Origin: Pseudomonadales bacterium
GTDB taxonomy: Bacteria; Pseudomonadota; Gammaproteobacteria; Pseudomonadales; UBA7239
DNA: 64,000 nt
NCBI GenBank assembly: GCA_035430165.1
Contig: DAOMGE010000001.1
Coordinates: 121,804-185,803 of the forward strand
Direction: 5' to 3'
The translations under genes and the position numbers were made by a program. Shown piece after piece: positions 31,115 through 45,079 of this stretch (position 1 is the first letter of the stretch; each line of letters starts with the position of its first letter). The notes under the pieces are model-generated. The model saw nothing but the letters and a program-made list of their open reading frames with translations. It did not search any database and had not been told where the DNA came from.

Positions 31115-32161
31115 ATGACATTCGCCAACGCCTTGATAATCATCAACATGTCCACACACATTATGGGTGTTGCCGTACCCGCACCGAATACTGACAGGAA
31201 GCTGAAGACCGGATCGCAAAACCGCATCGGCGTGGACATCGAGTGGACCAACCGCTGCAACGCCACCTGCTCGTTCTGTCCGCGTGACAAGATGCCGGCG
31301 CAGGGCATGATGAAGTTCGATGTCTTCAAGCAAGTGTTGAAGCGCTGCAAGGAAATGCCGATCCTGCCGGTCGCCAAGGCCTGCGGCACGGGCGAGCCGC
31401 TGATCCACCCGCAATCGATTGAATACGTCCGCTATGCCACCGAGCAGGGTTTCGATTTCAACATCACCACCAACGCCTCGCTGCTGACACCGGAAAAGTC
31501 GAAAGCCTTGTTTGACGCCGGCCTGAGCCAGCTCAACCTCAGTGTCAGCGCCACCGGCCAGCTGTACAACCAGATCTACAATCTCGAATTCGATACTGTG
31601 CGGCGCAATATCGAAGCGGCCGTGCAACAGAATCCCGGCAGCTGCAAGATCATGCTGACCATCGTCGAATTTGAAGACAATCTCGGCCAGGTTGAGGAAC
31701 TGAAAGCGTACTGGCGCAATCTCGGCATCAAGCGCTTCAACATCAACAAAGTTCACAATCGCGGCGGCTATGCCGAGCAATATTGCCAGGATGCCTTTAA
31801 TACCGATTACGAAGCGGAAGCGCTGCAGATTCTCGCCGATAACCAGATGTCGCACCTGTGCATGGTGCCGTATATTTTTGTGATGATCGGCTGGGATGGA
31901 CAATACTATCTCTGCTGCCACGACTGGAAAAAACGCCACCCGATGGGCAGTGTGTTTGATTTATCCATCGAAGAAGTCGAATACCGCAAACTCGCCGCCA
32001 CGCGCGATCGCTCGCCGTGCAAGACCTGTGCGGCGGATCCGGTCAACCAGATACGCATGGCATTGATTGCTACCAGCAAGGATGGCGCACCGCCGGAATT
32101 ACTGCAGGAAACCATCGACAAGATCAAACCTGACCAGCAATTCATGCACAACTTTGACTGA
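31115..32161 (+). CDS. Radical SAM enzyme with a C-terminal SPASM-like Cys-rich domain
   Basis: Contains the CNATCSFC (CxxxCxxC) cluster motif and the GEPLIHP SAM-binding motif. C-terminal Cys residues (CMVP...YYLCCHDW...SPCKTCAAD) are also present. The start is uncertain (31115, 31148 or 31163). Confidence 0.8.
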   Translation: MTFANALIIINMSTHIMGVAVPAPNTDRKLKTGSQNRIGVDIEWTNRCNATCSFCPRDKMPAQGMMKFDVFKQVLKRCKEMPILPVAKACGTGEPLIHPQSIEYVRYATEQGFDFNITTNASLLTPEKSKALFDAGLSQLNLSVSATGQLYNQIYNLEFDTVRRNIEAAVQQNPGSCKIMLTIVEFEDNLGQVEELKAYWRNLGIKRFNINKVHNRGGYAEQYCQDAFNTDYEAEALQILADNQMSHLCMVPYIFVMIGWDGQYYLCCHDWKKRHPMGSVFDLSIEEVEYRKLAATRDRSPCKTCAADPVNQIRMALIATSKDGAPPELLQETIDKIKPDQQFMHNFD

Positions 32162-34311: not shown

Positions 34312-36582
34312 TTATTGCGCATTAATCCGCTCGCCAATAGCTGAGCCACGGAAATTGCTATTCATCGGCAACAGCTTTTCGGTGTTGATCGCAGCATTCA
34401 ACGAATCGGCATCGATGTAATCTGGTATACCGTCATTATCATCATCAGGATCAGCGTTGTTGCCAATACCATCGTTGTCGGTATCGCCATACAGCCCAGG
34501 CACAACTTGTGGTGTGGTTTTTGACACCACAGTGTTATCGCCCAGTTGCCCATAGGTATTATTTCCCCAGCATTTGACACTGCCGGATGTTGTCAGGCTG
34601 CACGTATGGTCATAACCGGGAGCAATCACCATGCTGTCATTGCCGATGCCATTCACTGCTACGGGTACATTGCTGTTACTGGTAAGGCCATTGCCGAGCT
34701 GCCCGTTGTTGTTGTATCCCCAACACCTGGCACTACCGTCCGCCAGCACTGCGCAACTGTGGTAATAGCCGATGCCGAAACCGGTGACACCACTGGTGAG
34801 ACCGCTGACATCCACCGGCGTAGTGATTGTCACCGTCGCGGTGCCGTTACCGACTTCACCAGACCCGTTGTGGCCCCAACACTTCAAACCACCGGTTACC
34901 GTGCTTGCGCAAGAAGTGACATAGCCATTATCAATCGCCGCCACACCACTGCCCAGCCCTGACACATCGGTCGGCGACAACTGGCCAACCGTACCACCAT
35001 CACCGATTTCACCCCAGGCACCGTAGCCCCAGCATTTGACCGCGCCGCCCATCATCAGCGCACAGTGATGTGCACCACCAGCAGTAATCGCCAACACACC
35101 GGTCAAGCCCGGCACATCCACCGGTACGACACTCGGGGTTGATATCGCGCCCCAGCATTTCACCGTACCACCCGTCATCAAGGCACAGGTGTGGGATTCA
35201 CCCACCGCGACCGCAGCCACGCCGCTGTCGAGACCCACGACATCAACCGGCGCATTGCGATGGGTTTTTGTGCCATCGCCCAGCTGGCCATTGCCGTTAT
35301 TACCCCAACATTTCAGGCCGCCCGCCTCTGTCACTGCACAGGCACCCACAATGCCGACGCTGATCGATTGGACCCCGCTGGTCAGCCCGACTACATCCAC
35401 TGGCCGGTATTGCGGGCTGTTACCGCCATAACCCAGATCGCCGTAGTCGTTGTGCCCCCAACATTTGGCGCCACCTGCCGCAGTGAGGATGCAGGAAAAC
35501 TGGTAGCCCGCTGCCAATTGCACCACCTTGTCAGCACGAACCGGCAAGACATCACAGGCATCACCCTGCACATCGCCGTCGGTATTTTTCTGGTCCGGAT
35601 TGGGCAGCAGCGTGCAATTGTCCTGAGCATTCGCAACGCCATCTCCGTCGATATCCGGATCGCACGCATTGCCGGTGCCATCCCCATCACTGTCGAGCTG
35701 ATCCGGATTACTGGTAGCAGGGCAATTATCAAGTTGCAATCCGGAACCGGTCTGGCAAGCAACATCGCAGCCCGTTGTCCATCGGTCGGGAAAGCCATCC
35801 GCATCCGCATCCACGGAAGCGGCAGGGTTCAACGGCCAGCGATCATTGCCATCCGGTGCGCCATCATTGTCATCATCCGAATCACAGGCATTGCCTTGTG
35901 CATCACCATCTGTATTGAGTTGATCGGCATTTGAATTCAATGGACAGTTATCTGCGCCGTCCAGCACACCGTCATTGTCACTGTCCGGGTCACACACATC
36001 ACCCAGCCCGTCCTGATCGACGTCAAGCTGATCGGCATTGGGCACCGCTGGGCAGTTATCCGTCACGGTTGTAATGCTCACATCGTCGATATAAGGCTGA
36101 CCGAAGCTGGTCGGCGAGGATATGGTCCACTTGAAAACATGCGCACCCGCGCTGACCAGAAAACTGGATTGCGTATAGGAATACTTGTTTGCCCCAAAAT
36201 AGCCTACCTGAACATTATCGACATAGAACGGTACAGTAGTACCGGAGTTACTAGAGGATTTGGCCCAGAAACTGATCCTGGATGCCTGGGGCAACGTATA
36301 AGCTAATGTCATTACCGGAGGAAACCGGCACTGAATTATGCCCATGGTACAAGCAGTGGCCACATAAGAAGGGGTGCGGGCGGCTGCATCGTTCACTCTG
36401 CTCCATTGGCCAAAAGACCAGCCGGCATCTGCCGTATCAAAAGAAGTTGAATAAATTGTTACACCACCTACGTCATCAATACCGTCACCATCGGTATCAA
36501 CCGCCCAGACAGAAGCACTGAGCAAGCAGCACAAGCCCATCATGCAACGTAAGAAAATAACCGGAACGTCAATTTTTTTCAT
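34312..36582 (-). CDS. Secreted protein: N-terminal beta-sandwich-like domain, TSP type 3 Ca-binding repeats, seven RCC1-type repeats, C-terminal TSP3 repeats and a conserved tail
   Basis: Start at MKKIDVPVIFLRCMMGLCCLLSASVWA (signal peptide). It has repeated DxDxDGxGDxCDxDxDNDG units and seven copies of the G(G/S)xKCWGxNxxGQLG pattern. The tail is ...DNDGIPDYIDADSLNAAIN. Confidence 0.8.
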   Translation of the reverse strand: MKKIDVPVIFLRCMMGLCCLLSASVWAVDTDGDGIDDVGGVTIYSTSFDTADAGWSFGQWSRVNDAAARTPSYVATACTMGIIQCRFPPVMTLAYTLPQASRISFWAKSSSNSGTTVPFYVDNVQVGYFGANKYSYTQSSFLVSAGAHVFKWTISSPTSFGQPYIDDVSITTVTDNCPAVPNADQLDVDQDGLGDVCDPDSDNDGVLDGADNCPLNSNADQLNTDGDAQGNACDSDDDNDGAPDGNDRWPLNPAASVDADADGFPDRWTTGCDVACQTGSGLQLDNCPATSNPDQLDSDGDGTGNACDPDIDGDGVANAQDNCTLLPNPDQKNTDGDVQGDACDVLPVRADKVVQLAAGYQFSCILTAAGGAKCWGHNDYGDLGYGGNSPQYRPVDVVGLTSGVQSISVGIVGACAVTEAGGLKCWGNNGNGQLGDGTKTHRNAPVDVVGLDSGVAAVAVGESHTCALMTGGTVKCWGAISTPSVVPVDVPGLTGVLAITAGGAHHCALMMGGAVKCWGYGAWGEIGDGGTVGQLSPTDVSGLGSGVAAIDNGYVTSCASTVTGGLKCWGHNGSGEVGNGTATVTITTPVDVSGLTSGVTGFGIGYYHSCAVLADGSARCWGYNNNGQLGNGLTSNSNVPVAVNGIGNDSMVIAPGYDHTCSLTTSGSVKCWGNNTYGQLGDNTVVSKTTPQVVPGLYGDTDNDGIGNNADPDDDNDGIPDYIDADSLNAAINTEKLLPMNSNFRGSAIGERINAQ

Positions 36583-36730: not shown

Positions 36731-36804
36731 AAGGAAAAAGGTGCCGGAGGGATTATTTTTTGAGCAACTGATCATTTTTAAATCCCTCCGGCACCTTTTT
36801 CCTT
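36731..36804. repeat. Perfect 24-bp inverted repeat with a 26-nt AT-rich loop, abutting the stop of the 1382-aa gene (probable strong terminator or structured element)
   Basis: AAGGAAAAAGGTGCCGGAGGGATT (36731-36754) is the exact reverse complement of AATCCCTCCGGCACCTTTTTCCTT (36781-36804). On the minus strand a T-rich run follows the second arm. Confidence 0.85.
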
Positions 36805-39800
36805 CAGACATTCTCATCCAGCGACAATTGTGGTTCTGCTTTTCCACGCCACAATTCGCCGCTGCTGAAACTGTTCCAGCCCCAGCGACACCAGTCGAGC
36901 AGGGCAAACGCCAGCCACAATGACCACGCCAGCATCACGCCGCGGTACATCCACATCGGCAATGACAACGCCCATGCCGTTGGCAGCCCGACGGCGGTGC
37001 GATCTTGAAACCAGTTCAGCGACTGCGCGGTGGACTGGTTGCCGATCACTTGCATATCCGGTGATGACAACAGGCTCATCGGGATCGTGCCCAGCAAACA
37101 ACTGATCATGGCCAGCGTCAGTAACACCAGCAGCACCTGCATGGCATTGAAACGTGAACGCGTGAGTTGGGCAGTCTGCAGGTTGCTGCGCTTGGCCAGC
37201 ACCACAAACCACGCCACCACCAGCAAACTGCCCACGGCATTGACGGTACTCATGCCGAGGCCCAGCAGTACCCACTGCCAGGTTTTTACCGGTGCCAGTT
37301 GCAGGCGACCCAACACCAGCGCCACCAGCAGCATCACCACCAGCACACCCCAGAACAACAGGGCTGGCCCCATCATCGGCCCGCCCGCTGCCAGTAACCA
37401 CCGCCCTTCCGGCAAATGCAAACGCAAGCTGATATTGCTGACCGGTTCGTCCAGCTGCGGCTGCGGCAACACAGTGCGTGCGGCCATCGCCACATCCTGT
37501 CGCCAGCGGATATCGATCTGTTGCACACCGGGATGCAGCGGCAGGCGCAACGTGCCATCACTGGCCGGGTTGCCCTGCTCTTTGCCATCGATCATGACCT
37601 TTTGCAGGTTGCTGCCCGCCGGCAGTTGCAAGGGCAAATCGGCGCCCTGGCTACTGCGCACTTGCAGGCGCAACACGGCATCCGCCGCCCGGATACCCGG
37701 ACTGTAATCCAGCTGTGCCGACTCGATGGTGCGGGTGCTACCTTCCAGCGGCGACGGGCGCGAAATCCCCAGTTGCAGGCTTTCGCCCGGCCACGGCTGC
37801 CAGACCGGCATCGCATCTACTTGCGCGCCCTGTCTGACTGGCGGCAAGCCTTCGGTGTCCACGTGCCAGACCGGCGCGACGTCCAGCACCCACCGCTCTA
37901 CCCAGGGCTGGCCTTCCGCTGCTTTCAACGCCAGTTGCTCCGTCTGCTTCAGGGAAGACACCCAGCTGAACGCTGACTGGTCGGCGCTCATCACCACTGG
38001 CACCTTGCTGTCTTTGACCTCGATACCGGGCGTCAGCACCGCCTCACCCGGCAACAGGTTCACTGCGGTGGTGATCGCGCCGTACTGCGGCGCCACACGC
38101 TCGATGACCGTTTGCACCTGCCAGTCCAGACCCAGCACCAGCGTGCGCGTCACCTTCAGGAATACCGGTGCCGGATCCGGCAGCAGCTGCACCTTCTCTG
38201 CTTCCACTGGATCAGCAACCACGGGTTTGTCGCGGGTCAGCTGCAAGCTGCGTCCGGGCACACCGCCATCCACCAGACCGGACACCTGCCAATCCGTGGC
38301 TGTCACGGCCAGATTGTGTACATCCATGGCAAAGGGCAGCGTGAGCGCATCCGCAACCGGCGCACCTTCCATCACAACGCGGTGTGAACCCGCCGTCACC
38401 ACCACCCACAACAAGCCGCTATCGTCCCGCCGCAAACTGCTGGCGGTTTGGCTGTCGATCAGCACCGAGCGAGGCTGCCACTGGTTGCGGCCCGATGGCA
38501 AGGGCACGGCCACCGTCTCCTGGGCATCGATCTGCAAATCGATGCGCACCGCGCGGTCATCCACCGCGATCTGGCCCTTGTTCAAGCTGGCACACTGCGG
38601 CTCACAATCCGGCAGGCGCAACAGGCGCTTTTCCAGCTCTTCCAGCATGGCCTTGTCGGGAATCTCGGCGCGTGCCGCTGACGGCGGCAACAAAAATACA
38701 GCCGCCAGTACGAACGACAGGACCGGGGCCGCAGGCACCGGCGACGATTGCAGCCGCCACGCCAGCAAGGGGTTTGCCGCCCGCAATAACAGCGCCACAA
38801 AACCGCCAGCCAATGCCACCGACAAGGCATTCCACAACCGGTGCAGGAACGGGGACAACAGGTACAACTGCAGGGATTGCTGTTGCGTCACCGGCCCACT
38901 CCACTGCAACTGCACACGCTGCCACTGCCAGGCCGGCTCGCCGGGCCCAGTTTGTACCTTGGCGTTGCTGTCGTAGCCTGTAGGTAATTTTTCGCGCTTG
39001 GCCTTGGCCGGGCGCACGGCATAGCTGGCAGGTGCGGTAGGCGCATTGGCCACCTTGTCTTCCAGTGCGCCTTCTGCAGTGCGGGTACGGATTTCATCAA
39101 CCTCGGCATTCGCTTGCAACGGCTCCGCCACCTCCTTCTCGGCAGGCACTGCAGAGGCTGCCACCTCCACCGGCACGTGACCCTGAATGGCGGCATAGGC
39201 TCCCAGCTCCAGCTGCGGATACAAGCCCTTGCGCACCTGATCGACAGAAAATTGCAGCAGCTGCAACACCAGCAATAACAGCCCCAGCATCAAATAGACC
39301 GACACCAGTTTGTGCAACTTGCCTGTAGGCAGGACGCGCAACAGCGTCAGTGCCACCAGCGCGTTCAGCCACAGGAAAATCGGTGCCTTGTCGCTGTGGT
39401 AGGTCAGCACCAGCGTCAGCAAGGCCACCAGACCGGCCTGCCAACCCAGCAGACGCGACGTGCCTGCCGCCACGATCAGCACCAGAAAGATGGCCCACAA
39501 ATTCCAGCGCGCCAGCCACGACAGCTGCACCTTGTCCACGCCACCGGCATGCAACAGCATCCAGCCGGGCGGCAAGTGCAAAGTGGCCGAAGCATGCGCA
39601 ACGTCCTGCTGCCAGGCGGTTGCCGGCAGTGCGGTGTGTCTTTCAATACGACTCATGCTGCTCAGGCTGAGCGCACCGGGGCGCAATTCGATGCCCGCCG
39701 CTTCCCCGTCGCGGCGCGTGATCAGCCTGGGTTCGCCGTTAACATCGACCCGGCCCAGCACTTGTGGTGGCGCCATCGAAAAACGGGCAGCCTGTTTCAG

Positions 39801-40952
39801 CGTACCTGTCACCACATCGCGACTGGTAAACGCCTGGCCATCAAAATCCAGCCATACATCGCGCTTCAGGTTCAGGGAATCGCCAATGGCAGCCGCCCCG
39901 CTATCCCCGCGCCGCTGCTCGGTCAGCACCAGCTTGTCTTGTGGATGCAGCAGCCACGCCGGCAGTGCACGCCAGGCCGGCGGCAGATCGGTTTGCGAGG
40001 GATCAATGCTGCTGGCACCCGACAGGCTGATCTGGCGCAGGCTGCGATCGTCCTGCAGCGACCAGATTTCTTCTGCGGGCCACACATCGTCCATCCGCTT
40101 CATGGAAAAAGCAGTGGGTTGCTCCTTGGTGGATTGTCTTTCGGCGCGAGCCAGCAGGCGCACTTCCCCGGAGCCGGCACGCAACTGCACGCGCAAGCGG
40201 CCATCCGGCTCGATGCGGGCGGGCAGCGGTGACTCCAGTGACAGCGGCTGCATGCCGTCTGGCAAGAACTGGCCGAGCAGCACTTCGCGATCACGGCCAG
40301 CCACCTGCAGGCGCACAACGGTTTCCAGCTGGACCGGGATATCGTCAATCAGGCGACGGAACACCTGCACCGTCAGGGCATCGGCGACCACATCCGGTGG
40401 CGGCGCGTTCCCGGCCGGGGCATCGCCAAACAGCAACTGGCCCGCGCCATCCACGGATGGATTCGCTACCGCCTTGCCGTTCAGCGTCAGGGACAGCAGG
40501 CCCGTATCCGCCGGGAGCGTCAGGCGCGGCGGCAATTTGTCCCAGTGCAGGGCTCCCTGCAGGCGATATTCCCCCGCCGCCAGCCAGATCACCGGCTTGC
40601 CATCGCGAGCAATCACCGGCAGCGTCTTGTCATTCACCCGCACATTTTGCGGCCAGTATTCACTATCGCCCGGCAGCCAGACCCAGCCCGGCGTATAGAG
40701 CTGCCAATCCTGGCTGAAGGTCGCGCCTCTGGCGTCGGCTTCCAGTGCCAATCGGCCTGGCCATGAACATACATGCTCACCCAGCGCCGCATACGCCGCT
40801 GGACACGCAAGGTCCTTGTGCTGCTCCAGCACCCAGTTGCGCCAGGGCTGCAAGGGTTCCGGCACATTCACCGGTGCCGCTGACGCCTCCGCAGCCAGTG
40901 ATATCGACAATACGGCCAGACAAACGAGCCCGTACTTACGCAATCGCGACAT
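36804..40952 (-). CDS. Giant polytopic membrane protein, family not recognised (signal peptide, two large soluble regions, three hydrophobic clusters)
   Basis: The ATG at 40952 has GGGAGAA 7 nt upstream; the ORF-track start at 40970 is TTG. The protein is 1382 aa and begins MSRLRKYGLVCLAVLSISLAAEASA. The reading frame is long, uninterrupted and GC-rich. Hydrophobic clusters lie mid-protein and at the C-terminus. Confidence 0.7.
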   Translation of the reverse strand: MSRLRKYGLVCLAVLSISLAAEASAAPVNVPEPLQPWRNWVLEQHKDLACPAAYAALGEHVCSWPGRLALEADARGATFSQDWQLYTPGWVWLPGDSEYWPQNVRVNDKTLPVIARDGKPVIWLAAGEYRLQGALHWDKLPPRLTLPADTGLLSLTLNGKAVANPSVDGAGQLLFGDAPAGNAPPPDVVADALTVQVFRRLIDDIPVQLETVVRLQVAGRDREVLLGQFLPDGMQPLSLESPLPARIEPDGRLRVQLRAGSGEVRLLARAERQSTKEQPTAFSMKRMDDVWPAEEIWSLQDDRSLRQISLSGASSIDPSQTDLPPAWRALPAWLLHPQDKLVLTEQRRGDSGAAAIGDSLNLKRDVWLDFDGQAFTSRDVVTGTLKQAARFSMAPPQVLGRVDVNGEPRLITRRDGEAAGIELRPGALSLSSMSRIERHTALPATAWQQDVAHASATLHLPPGWMLLHAGGVDKVQLSWLARWNLWAIFLVLIVAAGTSRLLGWQAGLVALLTLVLTYHSDKAPIFLWLNALVALTLLRVLPTGKLHKLVSVYLMLGLLLLVLQLLQFSVDQVRKGLYPQLELGAYAAIQGHVPVEVAASAVPAEKEVAEPLQANAEVDEIRTRTAEGALEDKVANAPTAPASYAVRPAKAKREKLPTGYDSNAKVQTGPGEPAWQWQRVQLQWSGPVTQQQSLQLYLLSPFLHRLWNALSVALAGGFVALLLRAANPLLAWRLQSSPVPAAPVLSFVLAAVFLLPPSAARAEIPDKAMLEELEKRLLRLPDCEPQCASLNKGQIAVDDRAVRIDLQIDAQETVAVPLPSGRNQWQPRSVLIDSQTASSLRRDDSGLLWVVVTAGSHRVVMEGAPVADALTLPFAMDVHNLAVTATDWQVSGLVDGGVPGRSLQLTRDKPVVADPVEAEKVQLLPDPAPVFLKVTRTLVLGLDWQVQTVIERVAPQYGAITTAVNLLPGEAVLTPGIEVKDSKVPVVMSADQSAFSWVSSLKQTEQLALKAAEGQPWVERWVLDVAPVWHVDTEGLPPVRQGAQVDAMPVWQPWPGESLQLGISRPSPLEGSTRTIESAQLDYSPGIRAADAVLRLQVRSSQGADLPLQLPAGSNLQKVMIDGKEQGNPASDGTLRLPLHPGVQQIDIRWRQDVAMAARTVLPQPQLDEPVSNISLRLHLPEGRWLLAAGGPMMGPALLFWGVLVVMLLVALVLGRLQLAPVKTWQWVLLGLGMSTVNAVGSLLVVAWFVVLAKRSNLQTAQLTRSRFNAMQVLLVLLTLAMISCLLGTIPMSLLSSPDMQVIGNQSTAQSLNWFQDRTAVGLPTAWALSLPMWMYRGVMLAWSLWLAFALLDWCRWGWNSFSSGELWRGKAEPQLSLDENV

Positions 40953-41037: not shown

Positions 41038-43290
41038 TTATTGCTCGAGCGATTGCCGCTCGCGGAAGACACTGCCTTTGTAATGGCCATCCAGTGGCAA
41101 TAGTGCTTCGACGTTAATACCGGCATTGAGCGGTGCGGCATCGATGTAATCCGGCACGCCATCGTTGTCGTCGTCAAGGTCCCGGCTATTTGGCACACCA
41201 TCGTTGTCGGTGTCCAGCGGCAACAGGTCGGAGAAATCCGTCTGGCCATCGCCGTCGTCATCACTGTCTGTCGTGTCTGCCGCGCCGTCGCTATCAGTGT
41301 CCAGCCATGCGCCCTGCCCATTGAACAGGTACACCGCGCGGCTGGTGGTTGAACTGACAGCGATATCGGCATAACCGTCACCGTTGATATCGCCGGTATC
41401 ACACACGGCAGCCCCGAAGAAAGCATCCCCGATGAACGAGTAGAGAACCGAGCCGTCCATGCCACTGAAAACCCTTGCCTTGCCGGAGCCATTGCCGCTG
41501 CCGACGATCACATCGGCGCGCCCGTCGTGGTTAACATCACCGGCACCGCTGACGGCAGAGCCAAAGTAGTTGCCGCTCTTGTCGCCTGTGAATGTGTAGA
41601 GGGTATTGCCATTGGCGCCACTGAAAACGCGTGCCATGCCGGCAGAGGATCCGTTTGGATCGGCCAGGTAGGCACCAGCTATGATGTCCGGACGCCCGTC
41701 GCCATCCACATCACCAGCCTTGCTGATACTACTGCCGAGTAAATCGCCGGCCTGGTCGCCGTCCAGGGTATAGAGGATGCTGCCGTCACTGCCACTGAAT
41801 ACGCGCACAGATCCGGACAGACTGCCGTTGTTGTCGTCGTAAGGTGCACCGACAGCCACGTCGTCATGGCCATCGCCATTCACATCGCCAATACCGCTGA
41901 CGGCGAGGCCGAAATTGTCGCCTGCACTGTCCCCGTTGAATGTGTAGAGCAAGCTGCCATTCGCACCACTGTAGACGTAAGCCGCGCCTGCGTTGTTGCC
42001 GGTGCTGTCATTCTGGAAAGCACCCACCAGAATATCGGCCTTGCCGTCACCATTGACATCCCCTGCGCCGCTGACGGCAATGCCGAAACCGTCGCCGGCA
42101 GCCTGCCCATTAAATGTATAAAGCACGGCGCCATTGGCGCCGCTTAACACGCGTGCCGATCCTGCCCCGTCGCCCGTGTTGTCATCGCCGTAGGCACCAA
42201 CAACCAGGTCGGGATAACCGTCACCGTTGACATCGCCGGCACCCGCTACCGAGCGGCCGAGCCAGTCCAGCGCGTTGTCACCGTAAAAGGTGAACAATGT
42301 GCTGCCGTTCGCGCCACTCAGGACATACGCCGCGCCGGCACTGGTGCCGTGGGTGCTGTCGGCATAGGCGCCGACAATGAGGTCGTCCACGCCGTCCTGG
42401 TTAATGTCGCCGGCGTTATCCATGGCGCTGCCGAAGGAGTCGGTATTCTTGCTGGTTTTTCCCAGCAGATTGCTGTCGCCCGTGGTGCGAGAGGGGTCGG
42501 TGGGAAAAGCATCCTGCGCATCAGCCGTGCCGTCATTGTCGTCATCGTTATCGCAGGCATTGCCTGAGCCGTCGGTATCACTGTCTGTTTGGCTGGTATT
42601 GCTGACGGCGGGGCAGTTGTCGACAAACCCGTCGACGCCATCATTGTCGATATCGCCGGCCTGGGCCGGGTCCAGCGGGAACTGGTCGTAGATGTCGAGT
42701 ACGCCGTCGTTGTCATCATCACTGTCACAGGCGTTGCCAGCACCATCACCGTCGTAATCGGCCTGATCGACGTTGTGGCTGTTCGGGCAGTTGTCCGAGG
42801 CATTGGCGATGTTGTCGAAATCCTGGGTATCCAGCTGGTCGAGCCCGCTGAAGCTGATGGATTTCAAGCCGGGCGCCGTGGTGTTCAGGGATGTCCGGAA
42901 TATTTCCCATTCCAGGGTGTGGGTACCGGCAGCCACATTGAAGCTGCAGCTGGTAGTTGTGCAGCTGGATTGCAGGGCGGCGTCGTAGCGTAGTTGGATG
43001 CAGTTGATTGAACAGGTGTTGCTTTGCTGCCATGTCAGCGTATAGGCATTGCCATTAGTGACGGTCAGGGTCAGTTTGGCACTGGCGGTTGTGTTGGATG
43101 CCACGCCTGCGCCGAGCAGGACGGTTGCGTTACTGGTAACAAGCCACGTGGGCCCCGGCGGTAAATTTGCGCTGATGAGAAAAGTGAAGGTCGCATCGGC
43201 CGCGCTGGCTGCTGGAGCGACAAGCATTCCTATTGGCCATAGGGCGACGGCCAACAGACGACTGAAGCGGGATAAGATCCAATGTGGCAT
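41038..43290 (-). CDS. Secreted protein: N-terminal beta-sandwich-like domain, TSP type 3 repeats, seven FG-GAP (integrin-alpha-like) repeats, C-terminal TSP3 repeats and a conserved tail
   Basis: Signal peptide LLAVALWPIGMLVAPAASAADA. It has DxDxDGxGNACDxDDDNDG repeats and seven copies of FGxAVSGAGDVNGDGxxDxxVGA. The tail is ...DNDGVPDYIDAAPLNAGIN. Confidence 0.8.
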   Translation of the reverse strand: MPHWILSRFSRLLAVALWPIGMLVAPAASAADATFTFLISANLPPGPTWLVTSNATVLLGAGVASNTTASAKLTLTVTNGNAYTLTWQQSNTCSINCIQLRYDAALQSSCTTTSCSFNVAAGTHTLEWEIFRTSLNTTAPGLKSISFSGLDQLDTQDFDNIANASDNCPNSHNVDQADYDGDGAGNACDSDDDNDGVLDIYDQFPLDPAQAGDIDNDGVDGFVDNCPAVSNTSQTDSDTDGSGNACDNDDDNDGTADAQDAFPTDPSRTTGDSNLLGKTSKNTDSFGSAMDNAGDINQDGVDDLIVGAYADSTHGTSAGAAYVLSGANGSTLFTFYGDNALDWLGRSVAGAGDVNGDGYPDLVVGAYGDDNTGDGAGSARVLSGANGAVLYTFNGQAAGDGFGIAVSGAGDVNGDGKADILVGAFQNDSTGNNAGAAYVYSGANGSLLYTFNGDSAGDNFGLAVSGIGDVNGDGHDDVAVGAPYDDNNGSLSGSVRVFSGSDGSILYTLDGDQAGDLLGSSISKAGDVDGDGRPDIIAGAYLADPNGSSAGMARVFSGANGNTLYTFTGDKSGNYFGSAVSGAGDVNHDGRADVIVGSGNGSGKARVFSGMDGSVLYSFIGDAFFGAAVCDTGDINGDGYADIAVSSTTSRAVYLFNGQGAWLDTDSDGAADTTDSDDDGDGQTDFSDLLPLDTDNDGVPNSRDLDDDNDGVPDYIDAAPLNAGINVEALLPLDGHYKGSVFRERQSLEQ

Positions 43291-43444: not shown

Positions 43445-45079
43445 ATGCCCACAAGTCTTCAAGCTGTCCTGGATCGAAGAAAAACCGTGCCCCTGCGTAT
43501 GTTCAGGAACCTGTCCTTGCGCACGTCCTATACATTGGTGGCCGCCCTGCTGATCGTCGCCGGGTTCCGTCGCATGTACCACATCGACTCTGTCGGGCTG
43601 TGGTCAGATGAACTCTGGGGCGTGTTTGCCTGCTCACAAGGCAGCTGGTGGGCCATGATCCAGGATCTGGTTCACAACGACTCCCACCCGCCGGGTTACC
43701 AGACTCTCTTGTACTGGTGGATAAAGGCGTTTGGCGAAAGCGACATTGCCGTGCGCCTGCCCTCGGTCATTGCCGGCGTTGCATCGGTGGCGTTCACGTA
43801 TTTGTTGGGCAAGCGGCATTTTTCTGTTATCGCCGGCATCATCGCTGCCGCCATGGTCACCGGTTCTTTCTATGCGATCTATTACAGTCAGGAAGCGCGT
43901 GCCTACGCATTCCTGATGTTTTTTGCGCCGACGATGACGCTCTATTTCATCGATTTATTCGTCAGCAAAAACCACGACAAATATTCACTTCCCCTGTTCT
44001 GGCTGGTAAGTACCGCATGCATGTACTTCCACTACGTCGGTTTTGTTTTTGTCGGTTCTGCTTTGTTACTGAGTCTGTTTTTCTGGATGTACGACCGGCG
44101 CAGACAGGGTCATCTGCAACTTGTCTTCAAGGCCTTTTCCCCTTGCCTGATACTGTATCTGCCCTGGCTGCCGGTGATGTACCAGCACATGGCGCACTCG
44201 CCGGATGACTGGTCAACACCGGTGCCGGATCTGCCTGTTTTATGGCAAACCGTGCGATTTTTGTTCGGGCCTGACGATCTGCGGCTCTATCTTTTACTCG
44301 TCAGCATCGTGATGGCACACATTGTCTGGATTACCCGGTTTTTTAATTCCAGCAGCGCACCAGCTATCAGGTCGTACAACGACTACAAGTACAGGGCGTT
44401 CATCTGCCTGGCCTGGCTGACGTGGATTCCAATACTGGTCTTTTATTTCAAATCCCAGTTCAGCCAATCAGTTTATACACTGCGGCATTTCACCTATGCC
44501 ATCCCGCTCATCGCCATCATGGCCTCGCTGTTTCCTGCCCTGTTGATTTCAAAAATTGCTAACCACACCTGGCGATCTTCCGTACTGGTCATGCTGCTGC
44601 TGACTATCGCCGCCATCAACACGCGCGGCAATGATGATAACCGGCTGTATAACAACTACCTGCGCGAAGATTATCGCGGTGCCGTGGATATTGTGCGCCA
44701 TGATTTCCGGTTCATGTCCACCAATCCCGCCGACCGGATTGTGATTACGTCCAATGTTTTTTTTGACCACTACCTGCGGCTGTACGACCTGAAACCCCAT
44801 GCAGACATGGTGATGTCATCTGTCGGACAAATGAGCGAACTGGAAGCACTGCTGGAAAAAGAAAAACCCGACCGTTTCTATTTCCTGGAAGTCAGCGGCA
44901 AGGAAACGTCACCCTTGCTGGCGGCGCTGGAAAGCCGGTTTGCCACACGTTGCTTTTCCCGTCTCAACAAGATGAATGTATTCAAGTTCCTGAACCAGCC
45001 ACGACCCGCTGACCAGCTGCCTCGCAGTGAGCTGCATGACTGCCCGCTGAAAAGCAGTGTCAAACCTATGTCGGAATAA
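43445..45079 (+). CDS. GT-C fold glycosyltransferase, family 39/83-like (ArnT/PMT-like)
   Basis: About 12 hydrophobic segments. The N-terminal loop LWSDELWG...HPPGYQTLLYWW...ESDIAVRLPSVIAG is typical of ArnT/PMT-type enzymes, and a C-terminal soluble domain follows. The start could be 43445 or 43499. Confidence 0.7.
   Translation: MPTSLQAVLDRRKTVPLRMFRNLSLRTSYTLVAALLIVAGFRRMYHIDSVGLWSDELWGVFACSQGSWWAMIQDLVHNDSHPPGYQTLLYWWIKAFGESDIAVRLPSVIAGVASVAFTYLLGKRHFSVIAGIIAAAMVTGSFYAIYYSQEARAYAFLMFFAPTMTLYFIDLFVSKNHDKYSLPLFWLVSTACMYFHYVGFVFVGSALLLSLFFWMYDRRRQGHLQLVFKAFSPCLILYLPWLPVMYQHMAHSPDDWSTPVPDLPVLWQTVRFLFGPDDLRLYLLLVSIVMAHIVWITRFFNSSSAPAIRSYNDYKYRAFICLAWLTWIPILVFYFKSQFSQSVYTLRHFTYAIPLIAIMASLFPALLISKIANHTWRSSVLVMLLLTIAAINTRGNDDNRLYNNYLREDYRGAVDIVRHDFRFMSTNPADRIVITSNVFFDHYLRLYDLKPHADMVMSSVGQMSELEALLEKEKPDRFYFLEVSGKETSPLLAALESRFATRCFSRLNKMNVFKFLNQPRPADQLPRSELHDCPLKSSVKPMSE

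Follow-up and report, generated by a model that had tools for sequence, protein, structure and literature searches.

Dockerins are small, usually C-terminal modules with two calcium loops that sit on many Sec-exported carriers and are typical of Firmicutes, and T1SS substrates are exported without Sec signal peptides. The T9SS C-terminal domain (Por_Secre_tail) is a C-terminal signal that serves diverse cargo without a membrane span; it is a beta-sandwich of 70-100 residues and belongs to Bacteroidota-type T9SS only. The tripartite sorting signals (LPXTG/sortase, PEP-CTERM/exosortase, GlyGly-CTERM/rhombosortase and MYXO-CTERM/myxosortase) combine a Sec signal with a short conserved C-terminal tag that recurs on many paralogues with varied cargo (PMC11980579), and in RTX proteins a short conserved C-terminal cap behind the calcium-binding repeats is critical for folding (PMC9120197, PMC12874523). 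Here we compare with these systems a 23-residue C-terminal motif from uncultured Pseudomonadales, usually borne on a thrombospondin type-3 (T3) calcium-binding unit, which may act as a tag in its own right.

The window, a stretch of 64,000 nucleotides, carries on its minus strand two genes with a common 3' end. One (34312..36582) encodes a 756-residue protein composed of a signal peptide, a T3 unit, a jelly-roll-like domain, a T3 array, an RCC1 propeller and a terminal T3 unit plus tail; the other (41038..43290) encodes a 750-residue protein with a signal peptide, a beta domain, a T3 array, an FG-GAP propeller and again T3 plus tail. Both begin with plausible Sec-type signal peptides, as the first-pass annotation had stated, which were read from the sequence as MKKIDVPVIFLRCMMGLCCLLSASVWA (36502..36582, minus strand, end ...SVWA/VD) and MPHWILSRFSRLLAVALWPIGMLVAPAASA (43201..43290, minus strand, end ...AASA/AD). 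The regions behind them, an N-terminal beta domain with the first T3 units in each protein (35671..36213 and 42562..42999, minus strand), are paralogous, with 36% identity over 184 columns (BLASTP, E = 6e-22). The C-terminal modules span 57 codons in the RCC1 protein (34315-34485, minus strand; stop codon 34312-34314) and 58 codons in the FG-GAP protein (41041-41214, minus strand; stop codon 41038-41040), and the coordinates first given for this common tail proved exact. The modules are indeed paralogous, as had been proposed from their alignable DNA: the last 57-58 residues are ~62% identical (33/53, BLASTP E = 6e-17) and the DNA ~65% identical, with different codons at about half of the identical residues, which indicates conservation on the protein level and no recent DNA copy.

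Each module has two parts, a T3 unit of ~34 residues (consensus D-T-D-x-D-G-I-G-N-N-x-D-x-D-D-D-[NG]-D-G-V-P-D-Y-I-D-A-x-P-L-N-A-A) followed by an end motif of ~23 residues (x-x-x-E-x-x-L-P-L-[ND]-G-x-Y-K-G-S-x-[VI]-x-[ED]-x4-Q-stop). In the RCC1 protein the two T3 calcium-binding loops (DTDNDGIGNNADPDDDNDGIPDYIDADSLNAAIN, 34384..34485, minus strand) abut the translated, tail-specific final 23 codons (TEKLLPMNSNFRGSAIGERINAQ, 34315..34383, minus strand), loops and tail together making up the 57-residue module; in the FG-GAP protein the two loops (DTDNDGVPNSRDLDDDNDGVPDYIDAAPLNAGIN, 41113..41214, minus strand), which also align with the first module by BLASTP, precede the translated, tail-specific final 24 codons (VEALLPLDGHYKGSVFRERQSLEQ, 41041..41112, minus strand). 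A leave-out profile, built from 59 tails of other organisms with the T3 part and the window sequences excluded and meant as a non-circular test, matches both window tails at the extreme C-termini (E = 5e-13 for the RCC1 protein and 5e-12 for the FG-GAP protein) and has no further match in the six-frame translation of the window. With a profile that includes the two window tails, the terminal modules score 75-80 bits, whereas no T3 unit in the interior of either protein exceeds 13 bits.

The leading ~34 residues are, by sequence and predicted fold alike, a bona fide calcium-binding unit of the thrombospondin type-3 kind (PF02412 TSP_3; PF18884 TSP3_bac). Pfam TSP_3 matches the isolated tails at E = 5e-6 (FG-GAP protein) and 1e-3, reaching ..LNA, and hmmsearch relates the unit to COMP, TSP-1 and TSP-2 at E-values from 3.5e-9 (COMP, RCC1 loops) to 4e-3. 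A calcium-free AlphaFold model of the module gives a pLDDT of 91-94 for residues 11-40, the T3 loops; it superposes on 1UX6, 1YO8 and 2RHP with an rmsd of 0.8-1.6 Å over 33-36 residues (Foldseek), the T3 part being 47-50% identical to 1UX6 and 1YO8 (thrombospondin-1/2 T3 repeats). Unlike this unit, the last 23 residues lie outside every T3 model and can occur without a T3 unit; they have no match in Pfam, NCBIfam or PDB (E <= 10), and their pLDDT is 67-75 when the module is modeled alone and drops below 50 in the complete chain of a 283-residue family member (P0126). This full-length model, which rests on a shallow alignment with no contact map, gives no sign that the tail docks on the protein's own domains, a weak negative.

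These features bear on the main rival to a tag, namely that the 23 residues are a structural cap, closing the calcium site of the last T3 unit and shielding its hydrophobic face without any partner because the polypeptide of this family finishes with the T3 array, which we regard as a serious but rather unlikely explanation. The motif almost always stands directly after a T3 unit, and AlphaFold predicts a backbone beta-bridge from D32 of the YID strand to the invariant E43 that resembles closure of the last calcium site; both observations count against a tag. In favor of a cap, calcium could plausibly be bound by the invariant Glu and the conserved N/D-G, the thrombospondin repeat on which the profile match reaches furthest is the last one ahead of the lectin-like domain (..PENNAIS), and RTX block V offers a precedent for a C-terminal cap critical to the folding of calcium repeats (PMC9120197). 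A cap fits less well with AlphaFold confidence that is low exactly at the end motif, and with the lack of any detectable likeness to internal T3 segments: the motif was considered as a degenerate next T3 unit, and hhalign of a tail-only profile (A7) vs the internal linker-plus-loop profile (A8) returned no alignment. In two proteins, moreover, the motif is retained at the extreme C-terminus right behind an Ig-like domain, where no T3 unit precedes it (L026, E = 0.003; L012, E = 6e-5); these are the only two examples known and both are of weak score, which in turn counts against the tag. A cap also leaves unexplained why numerous carriers with no relation to one another would terminate in a T3 array that hangs free. 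The fallback reading offered by the first-pass annotation, that the tail is just the terminal TSP3 cap, is not established: the end motif does not resemble T3 and twice lacks a preceding T3 unit.

Three other structural ideas were set aside. Homology to the thrombospondin junction between T3 repeats and lectin domain (ISETDF..PLDPKGT) is suggestive by eye, and the tail-only profile has no PDB match at E <= 10. Isopeptide (SpyTag-like) or Lpp-like lysine chemistry was dropped because the Lys of Y-K-G is conserved in only 69% of sequences, and docking of the tail on a shared jelly-roll domain of the same protein because that domain is missing from many members, with the P0126 model as a further, weak negative.

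To define the family, we searched 1.84 billion representative proteins with a 40-residue tail profile (E <= 1e-3), which yielded 132 clusters or representative proteins, 45 of them at E <= 1e-10. About 128 of the 132 matches stop 0-5 residues short of the protein end, and members have 34-38 residues from DYIDA to the stop and 9-11 residues after Y-x-G. Besides the window pair, the module closes at least 125 further secreted proteins of uncultured Pseudomonadales that differ greatly from one another; these unrelated carriers include RCC1, FG-GAP and DUF5122 propellers, PilY1/VWA, a CEMIP-like beta-helix, a jelly-roll, pentapeptide repeats and T3-only proteins. A signal-peptide-like N-terminus is present in 74 of 93 full-length, M-starting members, and genomes hold from 2 to 5 or more copies, some in tandem. 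Thus the suggestion that the tail is a shared determinant stands insofar as it fits the family pattern (strictly C-terminal, on many unrelated carriers, several copies per genome); the part that made the large membrane protein between the two genes its recognizer does not. P0229 is an exception, with the module right after the signal peptide and ~200 residues behind it; this N-terminal placement counts against the tag reading, in that it conflicts with mechanisms that depend on a free C-terminus but not with docking. When tail profiles were run through a word-index protein search, they gave 1 and 8 short hits, the index favoring short proteins, of which P0001, P0138 and P0254 were useful; among metagenome contigs, a scan with a generic pattern confirmed none and a second scan returned only three loci that were already known.

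The tail genes are accessory and differ from close relatives as clean single-gene indels. Compared with the 87%-identical relative (L006), the RCC1 carrier gene is one such indel (window 36813-34281 vs 11 bp) and the FG-GAP carrier gene another (window 43378-40968 vs 106 bp), and a single variable slot in three related genomes is either empty, filled by one giant gene or filled by five genes. This turnover is in keeping with exposed proteins that diversify while their ends stay constant. A rival reading is passive conservation: a multigene family would simply have inherited a constant frame, with the signal peptide and first T3 unit at the N-terminus and the tail at the C-terminus, these ends possibly being homology arms for core swaps, and the tail peptide would have no function of its own. 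This reading would agree with paralogues that share both ends while their cores differ, with different tail genes in orthologous slots, with adjacent paralogues that are alike even in the variable last residues (AIQEQ[AV]QRP), and with a Sel1 gene in L017 that ends, tail-like, in ESQTAQ. We nevertheless consider it improbable: paralogous tail DNA is only ~65% identical with free synonymous variation and has no long identical tracts for recombination, and E, L-P-L, Y and G are kept across members that are only 30-50% identical, which requires selection on the peptide. A constraint on the DNA itself was entertained when GATTACATCGATGCC, which encodes DYIDA, was found identical in three sequences, and was abandoned when nine more loci varied at synonymous sites; in tail DNA generally, synonymous sites vary and the conservation is at the protein level.

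We then compared the tail with the known C-terminal signals. The absence of a transmembrane segment and of any recognized sorting tag, as first noted from the two window proteins, holds across the family: the maximum 12-residue hydropathy of the final 30 residues averages 0.39 and reaches 1.40 at most (~128 members), and when the tails are run against Pfam and NCBIfam (E <= 10), only T3-related matches appear, with no Cys, GG, PEP or LPXTG in the tails. The tag shares with the tripartite signals the pairing of a Sec signal with a short C-terminal sequence on varied cargo; unlike them, it has no transmembrane helix, cytoplasmic basic cluster, signature Cys, GG or PEP. Nor was any sorting enzyme gene found near tail genes in the loci examined. 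With the T9SS domain it shares the C-terminal position, the lack of a membrane span and the diversity of cargo, but the tail measures 23 residues (57 with the T3 unit), matches no T9SS model in Pfam or NCBIfam, and is modeled by AlphaFold without strands. That the motif lacks the helix and basic cluster of sortase-type signals and is far shorter than the T9SS domain weighs against a tag.

The dockerin (PF00404) is close in outline, with ~60 residues, two DxDxDG-type calcium loops, a usually C-terminal position, unrelated Sec-exported carriers and many copies. In contrast to dockerins of Firmicutes, the tail proteins are gammaproteobacterial, and no cohesin-like partner was identified in the tail loci (up to 24 kb); the module has no PF00404 match at E <= 10 and no helices are predicted for it by AlphaFold. 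The RTX block V cap and T1SS signal likewise place a short conserved C-terminal segment after calcium-binding repeats, but there the repeats form a GGxGxD beta-roll rather than a T3 wire, and RTX substrates lack the Sec signal peptides that the tail proteins have. It is hardly conceivable that the tail is a divergent member of a described class, be it a tripartite sortase-type tag (PEP-CTERM, GlyGly-CTERM, MYXO-CTERM), a T1SS signal or the C-terminal domain of T9SS cargo. The general pattern of a C-terminal element on many carriers in many copies does match these classes, TSP3 proteins with MYXO-CTERM exist, and the NCBIfam model MtsC partly matches T3 arrays. On the other side, no sorting-signal model in NCBIfam or Pfam matches at E <= 10, a hydrophobic helix (maximum 1.4), basic cluster and invariant Cys are all missing, the length is 23 residues against the 70-100 of the T9SS domain, and Sec signal peptides speak against T1SS.

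Between the two tail genes lies a gene for a membrane protein of 1,382 residues (36804..40952, minus strand), which the first-pass annotation had put forward as recognizing the tail, so that the tail would dock to it or be exported or anchored by it. The two tail genes do flank this gene on the same strand, and two independent indels beside one gene are somewhat unlikely by chance, although tail genes also cluster elsewhere. The distribution of the protein, for which there is no Pfam or NCBIfam match, nonetheless makes this partnership highly improbable. It is a stand-alone core gene, far more widely distributed than the tail, whose homologues number more than 370 in several phyla and include those of Myxococcales, Hydrogenedentota and Oceanimonas. 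In the 87%-identical relative (L006) the gene order PMT_2, membrane gene, rep helicase is kept with both tail genes absent, and flanking tail genes are absent as well from relatives at 59%, 55% and 40% identity. Conversely, the protein is missing from ~15 other tail loci (checked over up to 10 kb or as far as the contig reached). Many other TSP3 proteins carry the motif with no membrane partner linked to them, which is the very outcome that the first-pass annotation had named as counting against a linked partner. Just past the membrane gene stands a perfect 25-bp inverted repeat followed by a T-run (36740..36795), which is terminator-like (fold energy -47 kcal/mol, z -9) and occurs once in the window; a hairpin of this strength suggests that the RCC1 gene is probably a transcription unit apart from the membrane gene. 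With neither co-distribution nor conserved linkage to tail genes, a place for the membrane protein in the tail system is not supported on present evidence, and the proposed tie can be dropped whether the motif is a tag or a cap.

Other neighbors were sought in loci of up to 24 kb around tail genes. An all-against-all BLAST of the ORFs of ~10 loci, together with Pfam assignment of flanking genes, found only unrelated housekeeping genes; ~15 loci show no recurrent gene family beside the tail genes that might be a partner, which counts against a tag, and no protease-like gene recurred beside them in the loci examined. An alpha/beta hydrolase gene adjoins tail genes in L016, L026 and L023, a proximity that reflects common synteny, at least among L016, L017 and L026.

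The best explanation, in our view just short of an even proposition, is that the two tails are copies of a lineage-specific module whose end motif is an autonomous C-terminal tag read in trans by a partner encoded elsewhere. Its strict C-terminal position, the diversity of carriers, their signal peptides and the multiple copies per genome point to a tag, as do the lack of T3 likeness, the two T3-less occurrences, the low AlphaFold confidence, the gene turnover and the selection at the protein level. Both recognition in trans and the fate that follows it are what we infer from this pattern. We propose that the tag would mark fast-turnover accessory proteins with adhesin- or enzyme-like domains, exported by Sec in uncultured Pseudomonadales/Cellvibrionales. 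After export, the partner may recognize the tag in the periplasm, so that the protein would be either retained on the cell envelope or docked to it, or else passed on through the outer membrane. Loaded with calcium, the T3 array could serve as a stiff stalk or spacer, and by analogy the tag might act for varied cargo much as a dockerin or sorting tag does. A stronger version, which we think unlikely, is that the 23-residue motif, usually on its T3 stalk, represents a new class of Gram-negative C-terminal sorting or anchoring tags without a membrane span, with a dedicated envelope machinery or receptor that displays or exports a rapidly diversifying adhesin-like set.

Being short, strict in its position and new to both Pfam and NCBIfam, the motif is ready for a family model and for genome-wide partner searches; even if it proved to be no more than a cap, it would have its use as a defined terminus of bacterial T3 arrays. 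If it is read in trans, it would constitute a new Gram-negative route by which many unrelated secreted proteins share one fate with no need for a sorting signal that spans the membrane, and it would provide a sequence signature by which to find the surface or secreted proteome of a clade, marine or environmental, that is uncultured.

Three minus-strand genes of the window bear on the shared tail: an FG-GAP/T3 gene (43290-41038; 750 aa), whose product combines thrombospondin type-3 calcium-binding (T3; Pfam TSP_3) repeats with a seven-bladed FG-GAP propeller; a membrane-protein gene (40952-36804), encoding a polytopic 1382-aa protein without a match in Pfam and NCBIfam scans; and an RCC1/T3 gene (36582-34312; 756 aa), whose product combines T3 repeats with an RCC1 propeller. 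The first-pass annotation had described a C-terminal tail common to the two propeller proteins; translation showed the sequences it quoted to be right, and the two intervals it gave coincide exactly with the final 57 and 58 codons together with the stop. The terminal modules share 33/53 identities by BLASTP (E 6e-17). The N-terminal beta domain and first T3 units are likewise paralogous (36% identity, E 6e-22, BLASTP), the propellers are unrelated to each other, and plausible Sec signal peptides are present at both N-termini, as had been proposed. The window's own proteins carry annotation in a Pseudomonadales MAG.

At least 125 clusters make up the family to which the tail belongs. A HMMER search of 1.84 billion representative proteins with a 40-residue tail profile, as the first-pass annotation had envisaged, yielded 132 proteins at E <= 1e-3 (45 at <= 1e-10), and in ~128 of the 132 the match ends 0-5 residues from the C-terminus. 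From DYIDA to the stop there are 34-38 residues, with 9-11 residues after Y-x-G at all loci read, and the logo is D-x-D-D-D-[NG]-D-G-V-P-D-Y-I-D-A-[DAE]-P-L-N-A-A-x-x-x-E-x-x-L-P-L-[ND]-G-x-Y-K-G-S-x-[VI]-x-[ED]-x4-Q; E and G hardly ever vary, and conservation of Y/F is 99%. None of the family tails contains a hydrophobic stretch, which agrees with the earlier observation that the tail lacks a TM segment. The carriers are diverse, including DUF5122 (delta-60), RCC1 and FG-GAP propellers, a jelly-roll domain, pentapeptide repeats and T3-only proteins. At locus L023 (1-14668), three giant tandem genes (PilY1/FG-GAP, >2171 aa; CEMIP-like beta-helix, 1122 aa; VWA/PilY1, 1555 aa) each end in the tail variant WDDDNDGVPDT[IV]D[AF]APLDAGD.SE..LPL.G.YKG. 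Signal-peptide-like N-termini occur in 74 of the 93 members starting with Met, and many paralogues have their signal peptide and initial T3 unit in common (..LACCLLL..LPLQAWAVDTDGDG..), so that both protein ends are constant and the core is variable. Across many family members this N-terminal segment reads ..LACCLLL.S.ALPLQAWAVDTDGDG.D..DAFPN; in the RCC1 protein the signal peptide lies at window 36502-36582. Three Pseudomonadales/Cellvibrionales MAGs carry 2, 4 and 3 tail loci on separate contigs, as counted on the contigs of species representatives by exact matches to two peptide patterns, a scan that more divergent tails in other genomes would escape.

In the module of ~57 residues, a true T3 unit precedes an end motif of 23 residues that is distinct from it. 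Pfam TSP_3 coverage of the tails stops at ..PDYIDAxxLNA, and a profile search of PDB sequences retrieved COMP and thrombospondins in alignments that end at ..PLNAAIN; the remaining 23 residues matched no PDB sequence at E <= 10, no Pfam model and no NCBIfam model, and a profile comparison with internal linker-plus-loop segments of the family gave no similarity. NCBIfam, which holds curated C-terminal sorting-signal models, gave only T3-type matches to the tails even at E <= 10, in line with the earlier view that the tail is none of the known sorting tags. In an AlphaFold model of the last 64 residues (80-sequence alignment), two calcium loops were modelled with confidence (residues 11-40, pLDDT 91-94), and this part aligns structurally with thrombospondin-1 and -2 T3 repeats at an rmsd of 0.8-1.6 A and 47-50% identity; the first half of the module is a bona fide T3 repeat. 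Along the final 24 residues pLDDT falls to 75, 68 and 67 and no regular secondary structure is predicted. A lone backbone bridge links D32 (of Y-I-D) to the invariant Glu E43. This bridge would suit a cap that only closes the last T3 unit, as would the nearly constant adjacency of a T3 unit to the motif and the putative capacity of the Glu and N/D-G to act as calcium ligands; RTX domains, whose calcium-driven folding depends critically on a C-terminal cap (PMC9120197), offer a precedent. Against a cap stand the lack of T3 character in the end motif and the AlphaFold confidence, which is lowest exactly at this motif, both in isolation and in the full-length model of a 283-aa member, where tail pLDDT is <50 with no sign of docking on the jelly-roll.

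Tail DNA of the RCC1 and FG-GAP genes is only ~65% identical, with different codons at about half of the identical residues, and synonymous sites of the most conserved tail codons vary freely in nine further loci; the tail is therefore conserved by purifying selection on the peptide. A leave-out profile of 59 tails from other organisms, beginning after the T3 part and excluding the window sequences, picked out only the two window tails (E 5e-13 and 5e-12) from a six-frame translation of the window. With a full-module profile, which included both window tails, terminal modules scored 75-80 bits versus <=13 bits for internal T3 units of the same proteins.

The end motif also occurs apart from T3 units, which weighs against a cap: two proteins end in it, at the extreme C-terminus, directly after an Ig-like domain (L026 1-1403, ..TSTTLLIETSLPLEGLYKGAVIRDINTLQ before the stop, profile E 0.003; L012 5698-6750, ..STTYPYEFQVDGTYRGSAIQEQAQRP before the stop, E 6e-5). 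The last residues of the L012 protein are AIQEQAQRP, and those of the adjacent tail gene AIQEQVQRP. Tail genes are, moreover, fast-turnover accessory genes that keep constant ends, which again favors an autonomous element over a cap. Three related genomes share a variable slot flanked by a LiaF-TM-like gene and maoC: it is empty in L016 (7119-7186), holds one 1724-aa tail gene in L026 (7853-13258), and in L017 (5451-10267) holds five genes, which encode a membrane protein, a tail protein of 283 aa, a Sel1 protein, an MNT/HEPN pair and a tail ORF of 78 aa. The last of these, P0138 (L017 10001-10237), comprises nothing beyond a signal peptide, a single T3 unit and the tail; it represents either a free "handle" in minimal form or a rearrangement remnant. 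The Sel1-repeat protein (L017 8206-9090) ends in ESQTAQ, identical to the last six residues of the tail of family protein P0128, a match that recombination with the 3' end of a tail gene may have left behind.

Recognition of the tail by the membrane protein encoded between the two genes, as the first-pass annotation suggested, is not supported. This protein has >370 full-length homologues, mostly unnamed, including Pseudomonadales, Oceanisphaera, Oceanimonas, Methylotetracoccus, Myxococcales and Hydrogenedentota, a distribution far wider than the tail's. An 87%-identical relative (L006) keeps the window's gene order (GFO/IDH, VTT, PMT_2, membrane gene, rep helicase, radical SAM, FAD oxidoreductase) and lacks both tail genes, 106 bp replacing window 43378-40968 and 11 bp replacing 36813-34281; relatives at 59%, 55% and 40% identity have no adjacent T3 genes. 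Conversely, no membrane-protein or PMT_2 homologue was found at tail loci L001, L008-L017 and L021-L026 (to 10 kb at most, or as far as the contig reached), nor any gene family recurring beside tail genes at the loci examined. Two tail genes flanking one gene is an unusual arrangement; tail genes cluster elsewhere too, with two in tandem at L013, three within 10 kb at L017 and three in tandem at L023. Directly after the membrane gene lies a perfect 25-bp inverted repeat with a T-run (window 36740-36795; -47 kcal/mol, z -9), and with the ~200-bp spacer ahead of the RCC1 gene this indicates that the latter is probably a separate transcription unit. A 64-bp element homologous to this repeat is present in the 87% relative too (L006 4267-4330), but on the other side of the membrane gene, in the position that the FG-GAP gene takes in the window. 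At the loci covered (the window, L002, L004, L005 and L006), members of this large family, which has no Pfam or NCBIfam model and spans several phyla, often adjoin a GT-C/PMT_2-like membrane protein (window 43445-45079, L006 2545-4131, L004 8292-9986, L002 15281-16786); a patatin gene adjoins them in L002 and L004. A radical SAM/SPASM-domain gene (window 31115-32161) lies beside the rep helicase, with synteny kept in L006 and L007.

Among known systems, tripartite sortase-type signals combine a signature motif with a transmembrane helix and a basic cluster (PMC11980579); the tail is not one of them: it has neither helix nor basic cluster and matches no such model. A T9SS C-terminal domain is ruled out by size, fold and model, and a T1SS signal by the presence of Sec signal peptides. 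Dockerins are small two-loop calcium modules, usually C-terminal, on many cargo proteins. They are the nearest functional analogy, sharing each of these features with the tail module; since the module matches no dockerin model and is not known to have a cohesin-like partner, the likeness is a suggestion of how the tail might work. In family protein P0229 (264 aa), the only member of this kind, the module directly follows the signal peptide and precedes ~200 residues of another beta-rich domain, an arrangement that suits a docking module or a cap and does not suit an obligatorily C-terminal signal. It is hard to see why unrelated cargo should terminate in a calcium wire that hangs free if that end had no role, an argument for an autonomous element over a cap. 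Weighing this cargo diversity, the T3-less tails, the non-T3 motif, the low AlphaFold confidence and the gene turnover against the points for a cap, we tentatively favor, at somewhat short of even probability, a C-terminal handle that would be recognized in trans for docking, retention or onward export; a simple cap seems rather unlikely, and other explanations share the remaining probability. The tail is a well-defined, strictly positioned C-terminal motif on T3-repeat proteins, a putative handle and a moderately interesting lead toward a sorting or docking system.
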